DNA of 64,000 nucleotides from an uncultured Pseudomonadota bacterium (GTDB lineage: Bacteria > Pseudomonadota > Alphaproteobacteria > RF32 > CAG-239), in NCBI GenBank assembly GCA_902763535.1, contig CACWSG010000004.1:7568-71567 (forward strand), in the 5' to 3' direction. Within the stretch, counting starts at the first letter, position 1; every line of letters starts with the position of its first letter. Of the stretch, positions 147-35,135 are shown in pieces. The translations under genes and the position numbers were made by a program. The notes under the pieces were generated by a model that was not told where the DNA came from, ran no database searches, and worked only from the letters and a program-made list of their open reading frames with translations.

Positions 147-1204
147 TGAAAGACTTAATAGGATTATCCAAAGAGGAATTGCAGAACGAGATTGCCGCTA
201 TCGGCGAAAAGCCTTTTCGTGCTAAGCAGCTGTGGCAATGGATTTATTTTCATGGTGAAACGGATTTCACCAAAATGAGTAATTTTTCAAAGCCTTTGCG
301 GGAAAAGCTGCAGCAAAATTATTTTATTTCGCGCCCAAAAATTGTTACCGAACAGCAATCTTCGGATGGAACACATAAGTGGCTTTTAGAGTTTTCGGAT
401 GGTGAGCGTATAGAAACGGTCTATATCCCCGAAGAAGATCGCGGAGCGGTTTGCATATCTACGCAGGTCGGTTGTGCGGTGGGATGCAAATTTTGCCACA
501 CCGGCAGCCAAAAAATTACCCGTAATCTCAATGCCTGTGAAATTGTTGCTCAGTTTATGGTCGCCCGAGATGCATACGGTGAATGGCCATCGCCCACCAA
601 TGAAACGCGTTACCTTTCCAATATTGTGGTAATGGGAATGGGCGAGCCTTTGCACAACAAGGCTGAGGTTTTTAAGGCTCTTAAAATATTATCCGATGGC
701 GATGGAATTGCTATTTCAAAACGCCGTATAACCTTATCAACTTCCGGTATTGTGCCGCATATTGAAGCCGTTGCTCAGGAATTAGGCGTAAAATTGGCCA
801 TAAGTTTACACGCGCCCACCAATGAAAAGCGTTCGGCTATTATGCCGATTAACAATAAATACTCGATAGAACAAGTTTTGGAGGCTTGCCAAAAATATCA
901 GGCTGTCATGGGAATGAGTCGCATGATAACTTTTGAATATTTAATGCTCAAAGATTTCAATGACACCCCTGAAGATGCTCGTCTGCTGATTTCTTTGATG
1001 AAAAAGTATAAATTGGGAGCAAAATTCAATCTTATTCCCTTTAATCCGTGGCCGGGATGCGATTTTCAGCCCAGTTCCAACAATAAAGTACACGCATTTT
1101 CTAAAATATTGGAGCAGGCCGGTTATGAGGCGCCTATTCGTGTAGCCAGAGGCCAAGATATCCTCGCCGCCTGCGGGCAGCTCAAAAGCAAAGTTAGTAG
1201 CTAA
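146..1204 (+). CDS. rlmN: 23S rRNA/tRNA adenine-C2 methyltransferase RlmN (radical SAM)
   Basis: 352-aa ORF with radical-SAM CxxxCxxC (CAVGCKFC), MGMGEPL, and the C-terminal GQDILAACGQL typical of RlmN/Cfr. Confidence 0.9.
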   Translation: MKDLIGLSKEELQNEIAAIGEKPFRAKQLWQWIYFHGETDFTKMSNFSKPLREKLQQNYFISRPKIVTEQQSSDGTHKWLLEFSDGERIETVYIPEEDRGAVCISTQVGCAVGCKFCHTGSQKITRNLNACEIVAQFMVARDAYGEWPSPTNETRYLSNIVVMGMGEPLHNKAEVFKALKILSDGDGIAISKRRITLSTSGIVPHIEAVAQELGVKLAISLHAPTNEKRSAIMPINNKYSIEQVLEACQKYQAVMGMSRMITFEYLMLKDFNDTPEDARLLISLMKKYKLGAKFNLIPFNPWPGCDFQPSSNNKVHAFSKILEQAGYEAPIRVARGQDILAACGQLKSKVSS

Positions 1205-1242
1205 CTCTTGCCATCAACTACATAAAAAAACAATATGGACAA

Positions 1243-2811
1243 CTAAAACAAACTTAATATAGAGTTACTTGATTCTGACGCTAAAGCTAAAGCGTTAACA
1301 GCAAGCTGTTGGCGTGTCTGTAAGGCTAGATAATTAGCACTTTCTTCATTTATTTCAGCCAAAACTAAATTATCAGCTCCGGTTTGCAAAACATCAATTA
1401 AGCCATCGGTAAAATTTTGTCTTGTTTTAATAATGGAAAAATCATTACCCAATTGCTCGCTAATATTGCGCAAAAGTTCTGTTGCATTCTGCAATTGCAA
1501 AATGGTATTTTGCATATCCTCTACATTATTCCATTTTGCTTTGGTTATCCCCAGTGACAACGCATCGGCATTTTTGCCCAAAATTACATATCCATTTGTA
1601 CGTGTCTCATTAAATATTACTGTAAGATTGTTACCATTGAGCAAATTAATACCTTGATAAGATGCATCGTTAATCATTTTGTTGAACGAATCATACATAT
1701 TGTTAAATTGCTGACATGCCCTACTAACTTTATCATCAACGACCCATGTTCCTTTATTGCCAGTGGTATATATTGCATTTAACTCAGTAGCCCTAATATC
1801 ATCAAGTCCTTCAACATTGTAAGTTCTAATATCCGATGTGCACCACTGCGCATAATTTGAACTACCGGTATAAGGAGTTCCTGGATTAAAATTATTAGGC
1901 TGATTATATGTACTAAACTTAAAATCCTTAAGATTGATAACTCTTGCTGATCCGCCATCATCAGACACCCATGTTACCACACCGACAAGAGTTTTAGAAA
2001 CATCACCAGGATTATAATCTCTTGCTGATCCATACGTCATATCGGAATACACAACATCGCCAATTATCGGAAAACCGTCATCACTAACAAATTTATTCTC
2101 CAATAATGTCAAGGCTCTTACATATAATCCGGTGCTTTTATTCGTTTCCGACACATTACCATTGCTCATTGATATAGTCAAAGCTGTATTATCACCGCTT
2201 TCTGATGATGACCAATACGTTCCCGTCCCTATGGTAGAGGATACACTTCTGTCTATATTATATAATTCTGTAAATGCTCTATTAATAGCAGTTTTATGAT
2301 TATAAATATCAACTAATTCACAAGCTGACGGCAAATACCATTTACCTTGCCCCCAATCACCATCATTAGAACTAACTCCAGGAGCATAAAATTGACTGGT
2401 AGCTCTTGCAGCTAAACCCTTCTCTTGTAATTGATCAATGATAATAGGTGAACTTACACGCCCATCAAACTCCGGATCCGCTTCAAAATATGAGGAAACA
2501 AAACTACTCATTGCCGTGGCACTAGCCATGGAATTCATTTGTTCAATCATTTTTAAACCGGCTTCAATTCCCTCGATAGATGCTTGAATAGTTTGAATAC
2601 TCTGTCCCATACTATCCAACAAAGCGTCTAAATCTTTGGAGCGATTCGACAATGCTCTTGACTGATAATAAGATGAGGCATTATCAATTGCATCATTTAC
2701 CTTTTTACCTGTTGACAACCTTGTCTGTGTCGTTCCCATTTTTTTATTAAGTGATTTCAACGACGACAAATTACTCCGCATACTGGCCGTTAATGTTATA
2801 TTGTTTGCCAT
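1243..2811 (-). CDS. Flagellin-family protein with a large non-flagellin central insert (DUF1566/Lcl-C-like)
   Basis: N-terminus ITLTASMRSNLSSLKSL..TQTRLSTGKKVNDAIDNASSYYQSRALSNRSKDLDALLDSMGQ and C-terminus NFTDGLIDVLQTGADNLVLAEINEESANYLALQTRQQLAVNALALA match flagellin D0/D1 helices. GGAGG lies 7 nt before the ATG. The centre carries W-Y-LPS..EL / YWSSSE / YVRAL motifs. Confidence 0.8.
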   Translation of the reverse strand: MANNITLTASMRSNLSSLKSLNKKMGTTQTRLSTGKKVNDAIDNASSYYQSRALSNRSKDLDALLDSMGQSIQTIQASIEGIEAGLKMIEQMNSMASATAMSSFVSSYFEADPEFDGRVSSPIIIDQLQEKGLAARATSQFYAPGVSSNDGDWGQGKWYLPSACELVDIYNHKTAINRAFTELYNIDRSVSSTIGTGTYWSSSESGDNTALTISMSNGNVSETNKSTGLYVRALTLLENKFVSDDGFPIIGDVVYSDMTYGSARDYNPGDVSKTLVGVVTWVSDDGGSARVINLKDFKFSTYNQPNNFNPGTPYTGSSNYAQWCTSDIRTYNVEGLDDIRATELNAIYTTGNKGTWVVDDKVSRACQQFNNMYDSFNKMINDASYQGINLLNGNNLTVIFNETRTNGYVILGKNADALSLGITKAKWNNVEDMQNTILQLQNATELLRNISEQLGNDFSIIKTRQNFTDGLIDVLQTGADNLVLAEINEESANYLALQTRQQLAVNALALASESSNSILSLF

Positions 2812-2940
2812 GATGTACCTCCGGCAATACCATTACATAGCCCAACCTCTGCAAAGCTCAATAAGTTAGCATTATCTTTTACAATTAAAAAATCATCATA
2901 ATGTAATAGCGTATTGATTTTAGGTAATATTATTCCTATC

Positions 2941-2950
2941 GGGGGGGGGG
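2941..2950. repeat. G10 (C10 on the coding strand) homopolymer about 130 nt upstream of the flagellin-like gene
   Basis: Directly visible run gggggggggg in an AT-rich intergenic region. On the minus strand it reads TTGTTG-C10-gatagga-(a)TAATAT. Confidence 0.9.
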
Positions 2951-3271
2951 CAACAAAACATCGCGCCCTCACACAAGTGCACAAAAGATGATATCCTCCT
3001 AAAAGACCTGCCTTTCATAGCATTTCCCCTAACTTTTCGTTGTTTTCACACCACTACGTTATTTATATTATACAATAAACAAAAATACTTGCAATCAAAA
3101 ATACTTCCACGACCACAAAAACATTCTAACATCAAGAAGTTAAATAAACATTAATGTTAATCTAATCTATTTGTGGGCAATTAAAGAGCAAAAATTTAAC
3201 AAAATTAACATAATTTTTACCATAAAATAGTGTTATAATAAAAAGTGTCACGATAGCAAAAGGAGGGGGCT

Positions 3272-4831
3272 ATGCGAAAAGTTGTTATTTTCGGAGCGGT
3301 GTGTAGTGCGTTGCTTGTTTCTTCATCAGCATCGGCTAAAATTACTCCTATTCAGCAATATAAGTTTGGAGAATTAAATCTTGAAAATGATTTCAGATGT
3401 GAGGATATGGACGGATATTATTCTTCCGAACCAGCAGGTCATCAATGTAGCAAAAAAAGCTTTAAAGGGCATGAATGTTACTATAATTGCACTCTAGTGT
3501 GCAACAGTAGTGATTATCCTTATACGGAAAGTAATTGTGTAACCGCCAAGCACGGAGCATTGGGCGGAAATTCTTGCACATTTGAAGGCATAACTCGTTA
3601 CAAAACTTGTTCATGTTCCGATGATTATACAACCTGCGCTTCGCCTAAAACTCACTCAGATGAAGTTTGTACAGCCGATGGTGAAGCCAAATATAAAAAT
3701 TGCGCTTGCCCTGCTGAATATCAATATGCTTGTGATGGAGCCAATCAAACCGGCAGCGGACAATCTTGTGACGGAAGATATACGGCTTGTAATACGACTT
3801 GCCCAGGATCTTATAACAAATTGTGTGATGGTGTCGGAGAAGTCGGTGTAGGTACGCAATGCGGCGGCAAATATCAAAGTTGTGCCTGTGCCAGCACCTA
3901 TCACACTTGCAGTGGTAACGGAGTTGTAGGGATAGGGCAGGCCTGCACAACAGATGGTGGTAACAAATATGCTTCCTGCGGTTGCTCAAGCAATTACAAC
4001 TATTGTGCAAGCAATCAAACCGGTGTCGGTACTCCCTGTACTGCTGATGGTGGAAATAAATACACCAGTTGTGAAACAGTTCCGGAATGTTCTGCAGGTA
4101 AAATTTTGGCCGATGATATGAATTGTTATTCACAATTACCTGTAGGCAGAACAGCTATAGGTGTTATGTTTACTGAGGATTTGGCGGTTGATATTGCGGC
4201 AGTTTCAAGAAACACTTCAACTTATACAGCCGAATTCAGTACCGAAGCTATGAGCTGCAATTATTCTTCTGATTATAGTTTTGGGGCAAACGGAAAGCCT
4301 TGTAACTTTTTGCAGGGGTATCATGTAGGAGTTTCCTCCAGCAGTAGACCTTATTCATGTTATTGCTATGAAAACGGGCAATACGAAACTTATAAGGCCA
4401 ATGCCGTGACTACTGCAAGTAATCCTAAAGGAAAGACCGATACGGCTACTTTTGTAACAAGATTTGGTAGTACCAGCTACGGAGGCAATACTTATTCTGG
4501 AACACCTTTCCATATATGTTACAATAAAACAACATCAGGGTTAGCAGCTCACAGTTGGTTTTTACCGGCTGTAGGTGATATTATTGCTCTAAAGAATAAT
4601 TTGTCTGCAGTTAACAATGGGCTGGAAGCGGTTGGAGGTTTAACTATTTCAAACGGCACCAGTAGCGGTTGTGGAGTAGATGCAATGAATTCATCAACTC
4701 CGCAATATGGTTATGTTTCGAGTAGTGGTAGCGCTTGGTCCTCAGCTTACTTTGCCAGAACCGGACAAGTTACATACGGACAAGGTAATACTCGTTGTAT
4801 TATATCTCGAGCATTAACCACTGCAAACTAA
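3272..4831 (+). CDS. Secreted cysteine-rich repeat protein with DUF1566-like C-terminal domain
   Basis: Signal peptide MRKVVIFGAVCSALLVSSSASA. About 6 degenerate Cys repeats (C..DG(G/E).KY..C.C...Y..C). C-terminus has HSWFLPAVGDIIAL ... SAWSSAYF ... RCIISRAL. Strong RBS AAGGAGGGGG. Confidence 0.7.
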   Translation: MRKVVIFGAVCSALLVSSSASAKITPIQQYKFGELNLENDFRCEDMDGYYSSEPAGHQCSKKSFKGHECYYNCTLVCNSSDYPYTESNCVTAKHGALGGNSCTFEGITRYKTCSCSDDYTTCASPKTHSDEVCTADGEAKYKNCACPAEYQYACDGANQTGSGQSCDGRYTACNTTCPGSYNKLCDGVGEVGVGTQCGGKYQSCACASTYHTCSGNGVVGIGQACTTDGGNKYASCGCSSNYNYCASNQTGVGTPCTADGGNKYTSCETVPECSAGKILADDMNCYSQLPVGRTAIGVMFTEDLAVDIAAVSRNTSTYTAEFSTEAMSCNYSSDYSFGANGKPCNFLQGYHVGVSSSSRPYSCYCYENGQYETYKANAVTTASNPKGKTDTATFVTRFGSTSYGGNTYSGTPFHICYNKTTSGLAAHSWFLPAVGDIIALKNNLSAVNNGLEAVGGLTISNGTSSGCGVDAMNSSTPQYGYVSSSGSAWSSAYFARTGQVTYGQGNTRCIISRALTTAN

Positions 4832-10437: not shown

Positions 10438-11337
10438 TCACTTTTTTACCGATATTGCAAGCAAAACTAATTCTTTTAATTTTTTCATCGCAGCATCTTC
10501 AATTTGACGCACTCTTTCGCGGCTGATGCCAAATTCCTCGCCGACCTCATTCAGTGTTTTCGGGGTGCTTGTCAACAGGCGATTCTTTATGATATATTGC
10601 TCGCGTTCACTGAGTTGAGCCAAACATTTTTTTATAATATCTTTTTTATAAGATGCTTCTTGAGCCAAAGCAATTCTTTCTTCTATATTCTGGCTCTTAT
10701 CGACCAGCAAATCGATTCGCTCTGCCCGCTCATCATCAGAATTAGCAATAGTTGCATTCAATGAAGTATCGCCGCCAAGTCTGCTGTTCATATCCTTGAC
10801 TTCTTGCTCATCAACCACCAATTCATGAGCAATCTGCTTAACTTCTTGAGGCGAAAGTTCCTTGTTTTCATAAATTCCCAAATGCGCTTTCAGTCTTTTA
10901 AGATTATAGAATAGCTTTTTTTGTGCTGCACTGGTACCCATCTTAACCAACGACCAAGACCTTAAAATATAGTCATTGATAGCAGCTTTTATCCACCAAA
11001 TGGCATAAGTTGCCAAGCGCACTTTTTTTGATAAATCAAACTTTTTGACAGCTTGTATCAGCCCAATGTTTGCCTCAGATATAATATCAGCCATGGGCAA
11101 TCCGTAATGGCGATAAGTCATAGCAATCTTGGCAGCCAAGCGCAGGTGTGAGGTTACCAAAGTTTGAGCAGCTTCCATATCGCCCTTTTGTTGTAATTTA
11201 TTTACTAATTCAACTTCCTGTTCTTCGCTCAAAACCGGAAATGTCTTTATTTTATCCAAATAAGCAACTAACGAGTTGTCGTTAATGACAACCGGCAGAT
11301 TGCTTTTTCTTACAACAAGACCATTGTGATCACTCAT
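10438..11337 (-). CDS. rpoH: RNA polymerase sigma-32 factor RpoH
   Basis: Sigma-70 regions 2-4 plus the RpoH box QKKLFYNLKRLK. Confidence 0.9.
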   Translation of the reverse strand: MSDHNGLVVRKSNLPVVINDNSLVAYLDKIKTFPVLSEEQEVELVNKLQQKGDMEAAQTLVTSHLRLAAKIAMTYRHYGLPMADIISEANIGLIQAVKKFDLSKKVRLATYAIWWIKAAINDYILRSWSLVKMGTSAAQKKLFYNLKRLKAHLGIYENKELSPQEVKQIAHELVVDEQEVKDMNSRLGGDTSLNATIANSDDERAERIDLLVDKSQNIEERIALAQEASYKKDIIKKCLAQLSEREQYIIKNRLLTSTPKTLNEVGEEFGISRERVRQIEDAAMKKLKELVLLAISVKK

Positions 11338-16902: not shown

Positions 16903-17194
16903 TAACACTCAAACGGGTGGATTTTTGTGCTACTCGGGCGGACACACCAAAACCCATCGTATAATCATACGATGAGCGCTTTCGTCCCATAATTGTCCAC
17001 CCTAAAACCAACATTCTTGTCAGTCCTTCTTTTACTATAAGTTTCGCACGATACTACAATAATTATACCACATTTTTAAGCCCTATTCAACCCTAAAAAG
17101 CGATTCGTTTTTCAACGAGTTAGCTCAAGTCTGACTCGATTTTATTAAGATTCTCTGAACGTTTTCGATTCGAATTTTTTTTATTTTTTTTTCA

Positions 17195-35106: not shown

Positions 35107-35135
35107 TTGACTTTTGTCTACGGGGGGGGTATAAT
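35107..35135 (+). promoter_or_regulatory. Near-consensus sigma-70 promoter with a G8 tract in the spacer
   Basis: TTGACT (35107-35112), 17-nt spacer tttgtctacGGGGGGGG, TATAAT (35130-35135). Confidence 0.65.

Follow-up and report, generated by a model that had tools for sequence, protein, structure and literature searches.

The window analysed here, a stretch of 64,000 nt from an uncultured Pseudomonadota bacterium, corresponds to C4:7568-71567 of a 14-contig genome of 1,516,081 bp with 39.5% G+C. Near its start, the minus strand carries a run of ten cytosines (C10) at 2950-2941, which reads as G10 on the plus strand and lies upstream of a gene for a flagellin-like protein of 522 aa (1243-2811, minus strand), hereafter flagellin-like gene 1. 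Across assemblies the run occurs as C8, C9 and C10 alleles, and it is probably a contingency tract that is prone to slippage and lies in the 5' region controlling this accessory gene.

In flagellin-like protein 1, the N- and C-terminal helical domains of a flagellin enclose a middle part that resembles Lcl_C/DUF1566. The Pfam model Flagellin_N scores 39.6 bits (cut-off 26.6), Lcl_C reaches 31.2 bits in the middle of the protein, which is under its cut-off of 34.9, and Flagellin_C remains below threshold for this paralogue. Regarding the other end of the protein, the C-terminal 155 residues match NCBIfam flagellin models, and residues 367-522 match the solved Caulobacter FljK/L/M/N and Sinorhizobium FlaA with E values of 1e-15 to 1e-18. 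Judged by these matches, flagellin-like gene 1 is a true flagellin-family paralogue. The genome encodes flgB, flgC, a canonical flagellin of 280 aa and three longer flagellin-like genes, and within the genus the number of flagellin-like segments goes from 4 to about 45 per genome. Public data hold more than 3,800 relatives of flagellin-like protein 1, none of them above 52% identity. The middle part has a further counterpart in an open reading frame (ORF) of 1,584 aa (genome C3:154776-159530), which contains a G7 run and is 44% identical to the DUF1566-like residues 120-343; this middle domain seems to have been exchanged between flagellins and a giant surface protein.

The gene belongs to an accessory segment of about 1.98 kb (1193-3171), made up of the gene itself and 360 nt upstream of it, tract included. 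This segment is absent from the sister species (L013, metagenome-assembled genome (MAG) RUG14511), in which rlmN is directly followed by a gene for a protein of 519 aa. The edges of the flagellin cassette, at 1172-1192 and 3172-3192, are diverged copies of the last 21 nt or so of rlmN, both encoding CGQLKSK, and this suggests that recombination at the 3' end of rlmN has added or removed the cassette. In the next relative (L014), the 519-aa gene is missing as well. For rlmN itself, the closest relative is that of RUG14511 (97%), followed by those of many rumen and gut alphaproteobacterial MAGs, CAG:495 and 'Candidatus Scatocola'. When the 360-nt upstream region was compared by BLAST with 201 genomes of the family, only short AT-rich chance matches were returned, and by this measure the region is private to the species. 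In addition, the closest paralogues of the gene in 11 other species have no G or C run of at least 7 within 1.5 kb.

A tract of this kind stands out against the genome as a whole, which contains only 14 G/C runs of at least 7. Between lengths 3 and 6, the number of runs is multiplied by 0.13 with each added base, a drop of about 8-fold, and runs of length 6 number 27 versus 115 expected under base independence. This decay ends in a plateau, with 5, 3, 3 and 3 runs of lengths 7, 8, 9 and 10, respectively; extrapolated, it would predict 0.5 runs of at least 8 and 0.07 of at least 9, and the observed numbers are 9 and 6. The C10 at 2950-2941 is one of the nine runs of at least 8 and is long enough to slip. 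For all nine, the most plausible start of a gene follows shortly downstream, and three of them fall inside the upstream extension of a mechanically called ORF. The run counts and the positions of the runs of at least 8 thus indicate that long G/C runs are generally avoided and kept at a few 5' regions, which is the usual signature of contingency loci. The C10 tract is not a chance feature.

The original prediction expected the tract to vary in length and took a lack of such variation as part of its refutation. Same-species contigs from other samples, retrieved from ENA/Logan assemblies by exact-protein look-ups, bear the expectation out, all alleles being assembly consensus sequences. Among 13 assemblies, C10 occurs six times (the window, ERZ1029111, ERZ1038122, ERZ27279995, ERZ28613096 and ERZ28614710), C9 three times (ERZ28613015, ERZ919350 and ERZ1029116) and C8 four times (ERZ1029115, ERZ28613745, ERZ27280503 and Logan ERR3211447). 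The contigs are 99.1-100% identical to the window across 2-3.5 kb, with the tract as the sole indel, and in the 460-nt intergenic region (2812-3271) the tract is the only variable site among the assemblies. Because the tract varies in length between such near-identical contigs, it is hypermutable relative to its surroundings. The C9 allele is found on at least three backgrounds of single-nucleotide polymorphisms (SNPs), one of them identical to the window, while C8 co-segregates with two clpB SNPs (4993A and 5126T) in three assemblies. The tract is uninterrupted in all 13 assemblies. Three contigs (L164, L176 and L177) end at the tract or at most 43 nt from it, as expected if lengths are mixed within samples. 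Exact-flank pattern scans of JGI metagenome contigs and species-representative genomes returned no matches. We regard it as almost certain that this tract exists, that it is not random, and that it is hypermutable among near-clonal strains.

The immediate surroundings of the tract had been described in the original prediction as a promoter, with the homopolymer in its spacer, and the C10 tract, the coordinates and the wording of the motifs are all exact on the minus strand of the window. The -35-like hexamer TTGTTG (2951-2956, minus strand; 3/6 to TTGACA) abuts the tract; on its other side, as read from the sequence, GATAGGAA fills 2940-2933 between the C10 and TAATAT. Two -10-like hexamers overlap within 2927-2934, namely AATAAT (2934-2929, 5/6) and TAATAT (2932-2927, 4/6), and they are followed by TAAAATCAAT (2913-2922, minus strand), a motif also present in the poly-C modules of flagellin-like genes 2 and 3 and in their sister-species counterparts. 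In the window, the spacer from TTGTTG to TAATAT measures 18 nt, and TAATAT ends 116 nt before the ATG at 2811. With C8, C9 and C10, this spacer becomes 16, 17 and 18 nt, and with AATAAT the same 16-18 nt would be obtained for C10-C12. The hexamers had been called weak, rightly so: the pair TTGTTG/TAATAT matches 7/12 positions and TTGTTG/AATAAT 8/12, and in a promoter scan that covered 2600-3400 the former fell under the threshold and was not listed. In random flanks of the same composition, an equally good pair spans the C10 in 3.6% of trials, or any of C8-C10 in 6%, in a computation made post hoc with the pair already seen, and the TTGTTG-based pair is no better than the best chance pair in any shuffle of the AT-rich region.

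The best sigma-70-like site of the intergenic region is instead TTGCAA-16-TATAAT at 3094-3067 on the minus strand, which matches 10/12 positions and lies 117 nt upstream of the tract. A promoter at this position is plausible. Since this stronger site lies upstream, and since the scan of 2600-3400 found no terminator-like site between it and the tract, the tract may itself be transcribed. The promoter-spacer proposal is partly supported, through the spacings of the three alleles, and it is weakened by its 7/12 hexamers and by this 10/12 site upstream of them.

Regarding sigma factors, the genome encodes RpoD, two RpoH and RpoN, and no match above the FliA cut-off was found in it. The two candidates for fliA were dismissed because both are RpoH paralogues (window 10438-11337 and genome C4:132153-133028), each above the curated cut-off. 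Neither the sigma-28 consensus (TAAA-N15-GCCGATAA) nor that of sigma-54 is present in 2812-3290, which removes the FliA-type promoter that had been named as the alternative to the tract promoter. The canonical 280-aa flagellin has a sigma-70-type promoter, TTGGCA-17-TATAAT, and flagellin genes seem here to be read by the housekeeping sigma factor. Three other readings were rejected. A sigma-28 reading of CCCGATAGG fails for want of fliA in the genome and of TAAA at -35. A sigma-32 reading, considered in view of the two RpoH genes, in which the poly-C would serve as a CCCCATnT -10 element, suits only gene 3, where CCCCATAT is preceded by TTGTTT at 13 nt; it was dropped because CCCCGATA of gene 1, at a spacing of 6 nt, does not fit. 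A promoter on the G strand, directed toward the 519-aa gene, lacks a -10 after the tract on that strand, and in the sister species, which is without the insert, the 519-aa gene still has an upstream region of its own.

Promoters with a tract in their spacer do occur in this genome. Five near-identical copies have the form TTGACT-TTTGTCTAC(C/T)-G8-10-TATAAT, with spacers of 17, 19, 19, 20 and 20 nt, and two more are variants of it. The copies of (A)nCTTGACTTTTGTCTAC(C/T)-G8-10-TATAAT are found at window 35107-35135 (G8 at 35122-35129) and at C2:46271-46280, C2:153048-153056, C6:135922-135930 and C9:65062-65071. They match the consensus at 11-12/12 positions, are located 25-40 nt before a start codon, have the G-run on the sense strand, and each of the five precedes an orphan gene, the downstream genes being without a Pfam family. 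Outside this species, the exact module was found only once, in the sister species, and one orthologous sister site has the same length, G9. A look-up of the protein encoded downstream of the G8 promoter returned no record from other assemblies. On this evidence, the organism clearly uses tract-in-spacer promoters. The original prediction considered the C10 to be of the same design as the G8 promoter at 35107; the resemblance holds for the layout only, as the hexamers at the C10 are far weaker than those of the five TTGACT-N17-20-TATAAT promoters. A second family of tract promoters, ..TTGATTTTATTGAATAAAAAAACACTTGC-G9-TAAAATTGTGGTATACT, is found at C5:48072-48080 and at L124, L128, L130, L138, L139 and L144 in two other species, and shares an AT-rich upstream flank with the flagellin poly-C modules in the opposite orientation (TTGC-G9-...TGGTATACT).

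Poly-C runs also precede other flagellin-like genes. Genes 2 and 3 have sense-strand runs of C8 and C7, followed by ..ATAAAATCAA, and the homologous sites of the sister species have C10 and C9, with flanks that are 91-92% identical. A search of 56 genomes of the genus for the pattern C7-N8-24-AAAATCAA gave 14 sites, and its reversed control gave none. Where the module is of the gene 2/3 type, 110-280 nt separate the tract from two elements upstream of it, a near-consensus TTGAAT-17-TGnTATAAT and an AAGGA-ATG whose ORF crosses the tract, and in two of the four copies of this type the ORF is in frame to the flagellin start; hexamers that span the tract are poor at the actual tract lengths. The same TTGAAT-17-TGnTATAAT is also found before a homologue without poly-C in another species. 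These related modules argue that the tract lies in a transcribed leader in this gene family, and they count as one or two independent observations because they are mutually related.

The transcript that would begin at the upstream promoter would contain a short ORF through the tract (2796-2984, minus strand), whose stop (TAA) ends 16 nt inside the flagellin-like gene. A Shine-Dalgarno-like AGGAGG (2995-3000, minus strand) lies 10 nt before a TTG at 2984 and 12 nt before a GTG at 2982. With C10, the frame of the TTG crosses the tract and has 62 codons; with C9, this is true of the frame of the GTG, with 61 codons. With C8, both AGGAGG-led frames stop about 20 nt past the tract, and a through-frame is available only from the TTG at 2956, with a weak GAGG. 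Public gene calls follow the same division: they list ORFs of 62, 61 and 73 aa for assemblies with C10 or C9, and no ORF for those with C8.

The origin of the downstream half of this ORF can be traced. In ERZ919319 scaffold_15531 (L175/L178), a flagellin gene that is 99% identical is preceded by unrelated upstream DNA, and homology to the window begins at 2884; there, a Lys-rich ORF of 191 aa extends over the flagellin start as far as the same TAA. Because the homology begins at 2884, the last 29 codons of the upstream ORF (2796-2884, minus strand) would be a remnant, the inherited 3' end, of the 191-aa gene. The scaffold either shows the cassette in a second upstream configuration or is chimeric; given the overlap of its 191-aa ORF, overlap-coupled translation would be the other observed configuration of the flagellin gene. 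The upstream DNA of the scaffold also encodes a C-terminal-processing-peptidase-like gene. With the 29 remnant codons held fixed and the remaining flanks shuffled, the tract is crossed by an AGGAGG-led ORF that continues into the remnant in 0.1% of shuffles at C10 and in 0.3% at any of C8-C10, and looser definitions of the ribosome site give a crossing ORF in 0.7-2.5%. The crossing ORF is thus rarer by chance than the promoter hexamer pair (3.6-6%), both sets of figures having been computed post hoc, with the features already seen.

That the length of the tract alters the amount of flagellin-like protein made is likely in our judgement. As to the manner, a frame switch in an upstream ORF of the leader is the single mechanism that we would favour, and we do so tentatively. 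Under this mechanism, the tract would be transcribed from TTGCAA-16-TATAAT at 3094-3067 and would lie within the short upstream ORF led by AGGAGG at 3000-2995, with its start at TTG 2984 or GTG 2982. The length of the tract would set the reading frame, such that C10 (from TTG) and C9 (from GTG) would allow read-through to the stop inside the flagellin gene, and with C8 both AGGAGG-led frames would terminate shortly past the tract. The flagellin-like gene has its own ribosome-binding site, GGAGG (2818-2822, minus strand), which is predicted to be held together with the AUG in a small hairpin of -6.2 kcal/mol; ribosomes that arrive there would melt this hairpin and reinitiate, i.e., translation would be coupled, and translating ribosomes would also shield about 110 nt of leader from polarity. 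The outcome would be that C9 and C10 are 'on', and C8 is 'off or low'. Beyond the presence of the ORF in the sequence, every step of this mechanism is one that we infer.

Several observations weigh against a frame switch. As for the upstream promoter, dinucleotide shuffles of the 360-nt region reach a score of at least 10 in 15% of cases. The peptide of the upstream ORF has no homologue among 5.8 billion proteins and resembles non-coding sequence, its start is a TTG at a long spacing of 10 nt, and some start codon is in frame at every tract length. The flagellin gene's own GGAGG is a good site. Moreover, long open frames are also found in the leaders of relatives without poly-C, which makes such a frame weak evidence in this gene family, and the promoter spacer of 16, 17 or 18 nt suits the three alleles equally well. 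Finally, the frame-switch hypothesis was formed after the data had been seen.

The leading alternative, which we rate as only slightly less probable, is that RpoD uses TTGTTG with TAATAT or AATAAT, and that slippage tunes or switches transcription from a start near 2920. Its layout is confirmed, the three alleles give exactly 16, 17 and 18 nt, and an equal spanning pair of hexamers is found in only 3.6-6% of random flanks. The same genome holds the five near-identical TTGACT-N9/10-G8-10-TATAAT promoters and the two further tract promoters, it has no FliA, no sigma-28 or sigma-54 sites lie nearby, and the canonical flagellin has a sigma-70-type promoter. In addition, the conserved TAAAATCAAT would sit at the predicted start of the transcript. 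Against this, the hexamers match only 7-8 of 12 positions, under the scan threshold, and are no better than the best of the shuffles, while the 10/12 promoter would read through from upstream, with no terminator in between. At the lengths they actually have, the homologous modules before other flagellin-like genes offer no usable hexamers spanning the poly-C, and the strand differs as well: the sense strand carries the G-run in all seven clear tract promoters and the C-run in all the flagellin modules. With two overlapping -10 candidates, the output would also be rather insensitive to length over C8-C12. The frame switch and a promoter spacer of variable length could coexist. They would differ in their dependence on tract length, as the former, if true, predicts a periodicity of 3 bases and the latter a single optimum near C9.

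An unlikely alternative is that the tract has no regulatory role and is a hypermutable relic that arrived with a recombined segment of upstream DNA, such as one half of a former G-strand promoter of the TTGC-G9-TAAAATTGTGGTATACT kind, and that its length drifts neutrally. An AT-rich flank (..TTATTCAATAAAATCAA) is indeed common to modules in other species and to the species' own C5:48072, where the promoter is oppositely oriented, and the tract is found at homology breakpoints between paralogous leaders. A copy without a gene has decayed to CCCCTCCCC, so such tracts can lose function, and lengths of 8-10 fit a drift around 9. Neutrality is difficult to reconcile, however, with the general avoidance of long G/C runs in a genome where all nine runs of at least 8 lie just upstream of genes, or with the sense-strand C-run upstream of three of the four full-length flagellin-like genes, an arrangement with a chance of order 1e-6. 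The tract also remains uninterrupted in 13/13 assemblies, whereas the gene-less copy is interrupted.

Less probable again is an action of the tract at the RNA level that would need no translation of an upstream ORF, be it as the target of a G-rich small RNA, as an anti-ribosome-site partner for GGAGG(GGG), or as a C-rich loading site for Rho. Each of the five flagellin modules has its C-run on the sense strand, genes 2 and 3 have ribosome sites (GGAGGGGG) that are complementary to poly-C, the leader of these two genes has a conserved stem with one compensatory pair, and a candidate upstream promoter is present. Nevertheless, the fold of the gene 1 leader is no better than that of its shuffles (z = +0.3), this leader matches no Rfam family, the tract and the ribosome site are not paired with each other in its minimum-energy fold, and the strength of pairing would vary little between lengths 8 and 10.

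That the length differences are an assembly or sequencing artefact at a homopolymer is very improbable: homopolymers do raise the rate of Illumina indel errors and the three contigs named above do stop at or near the tract, but consensus calls at C8-10 are normally reliable, each length occurs in at least three assemblies that are independent and come from different assemblers, SNPs 4993A and 5126T accompany C8 in three assemblies, and lengths mixed within a sample would also yield contig breaks at the tract.

Comparison with known systems places the tract in a familiar setting. In Neisseria meningitidis, porA (poly-G), opc and fetA (poly-C) phase-vary through a tract in the promoter spacer. 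The present locus resembles them in its G/C homopolymer between -35- and -10-like hexamers, in single-base changes of the spacer, in alleles that differ among strains and in having a surface structure as target; it differs in its weak hexamers (7/12), in the stronger promoter upstream, and in its target, a flagellin paralogue of an uncultured gut alphaproteobacterium. With fim2 and fim3 of Bordetella pertussis it has in common a sense-strand poly-C before the gene of a filament subunit, paralogues that each have their own tract, and a tract that occupies the -35 region of a promoter whose -35 is poor; the Bordetella tracts are longer (about 13-15 C) and align the site of the activator BvgA with the -10. 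The subfamily II tpr genes of Treponema pallidum likewise have a homopolymer of about 7-12 upstream of paralogous genes for surface proteins, with lengths that differ among strains, although in tpr it is a sense-strand poly-G whose modulation of the promoter has been tested with reporters. In tlpB of Helicobacter pylori, a gene for chemotaxis, a variable homopolymer lies in the 5' leader, as it would here if the leader is transcribed, and its length sets post-transcriptional output through the complementary small RNA RepG.

The effect proposed for the upstream ORF is closest to Haemophilus influenzae lic1 and to Campylobacter flgR, flgS, flhA and maf, where an upstream frameshift decides on downstream expression, with a flagellar phenotype in Campylobacter; there the repeat lies in a real, conserved gene, whereas here it lies in a chimera of 62 codons without a conserved peptide. 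As an outcome, a heritable and reversible choice among flagellins is also known from Salmonella fliC/fljB, which relies on site-specific inversion by Hin and on a repressor, not on the slippage of a repeat. A full-text literature search found no report of repeat-driven control of the 5' region of a flagellin gene, and none of phase variation in the RF32-type bacterial group; the papers that it returned on phase variation dealt with Campylobacter, Neisseria, Vibrio phage and gene regulation in general, and for RF32 flagellins it gave nothing of relevance. To our knowledge, repeat-driven phase variation has been described almost only in cultured, host-adapted pathogens (Neisseria, Haemophilus, Campylobacter, Helicobacter, Bordetella and Treponema).

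The locus would thus represent a known type of switch in a new organism, an uncultured, RF32-like alphaproteobacterium of rumen and gut with CAG-495 relatives, and with a new target. The genomic signature is the same as in those pathogens, in that long G/C runs are purged, a few are kept before orphan and flagellin-like genes, and, at this locus, length varies among near-clonal strains from different animals. The target is a member of a greatly expanded flagellin family with variable middle domains, which suggests that a commensal varies the surface of its filament; phage, protozoan grazing and host immunity are plausible pressures on such a surface. A more general proposal, possible though rather doubtful, is that the poly-C leader modules (a C-run followed by ..TAAAATCAAT) form a lineage-specific family in this and the sister species, and gate accessory flagellins with swapped middle domains through the frame of a short translated leader ORF extending over the flagellin start and not through a promoter spacer. 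If this is true, slippage would toggle individual flagellins by translational coupling or polarity, and would generate combinatorial variation of the filament surface in a gut commensal. The presence of three natural alleles at one locus makes it a clean case for separating an effect of the promoter spacer from a switch of frame.

Some features of the related modules deserve mention on their own. A leader of about 150 nt is conserved after TTGAAT-17-TGnTATAAT at window 16905-17075 (minus strand, gene 2), at C5:26299-26429 and at C4:148182-148320, and it matches no Rfam family. In a diverged copy, one compensatory change preserves its long stem, GGGTGGACA/TGTCCGCCC, a comparison based on four sequences, three of them nearly identical; an alternative stem partner, TCCACCC (CTGCCC in the diverged copy), also co-varies. 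This leader could be an RNA switch for flagellin-like genes. At genome C4:148140-148160, outside the window, a copy of promoter, leader and poly-C stands without a flagellin gene; its tract is interrupted (CCCCTCCCC), and it looks like a decayed, locked switch.

Two contigs show structural differences beside the tract: in L162 (ERZ28613015), an in-frame deletion of 54 nt (window 2590-2643) affects the part of the flagellin-like gene that encodes the N-terminal helical region, and in L173, window 3290-3335, near the start of the 519-aa gene, is missing.

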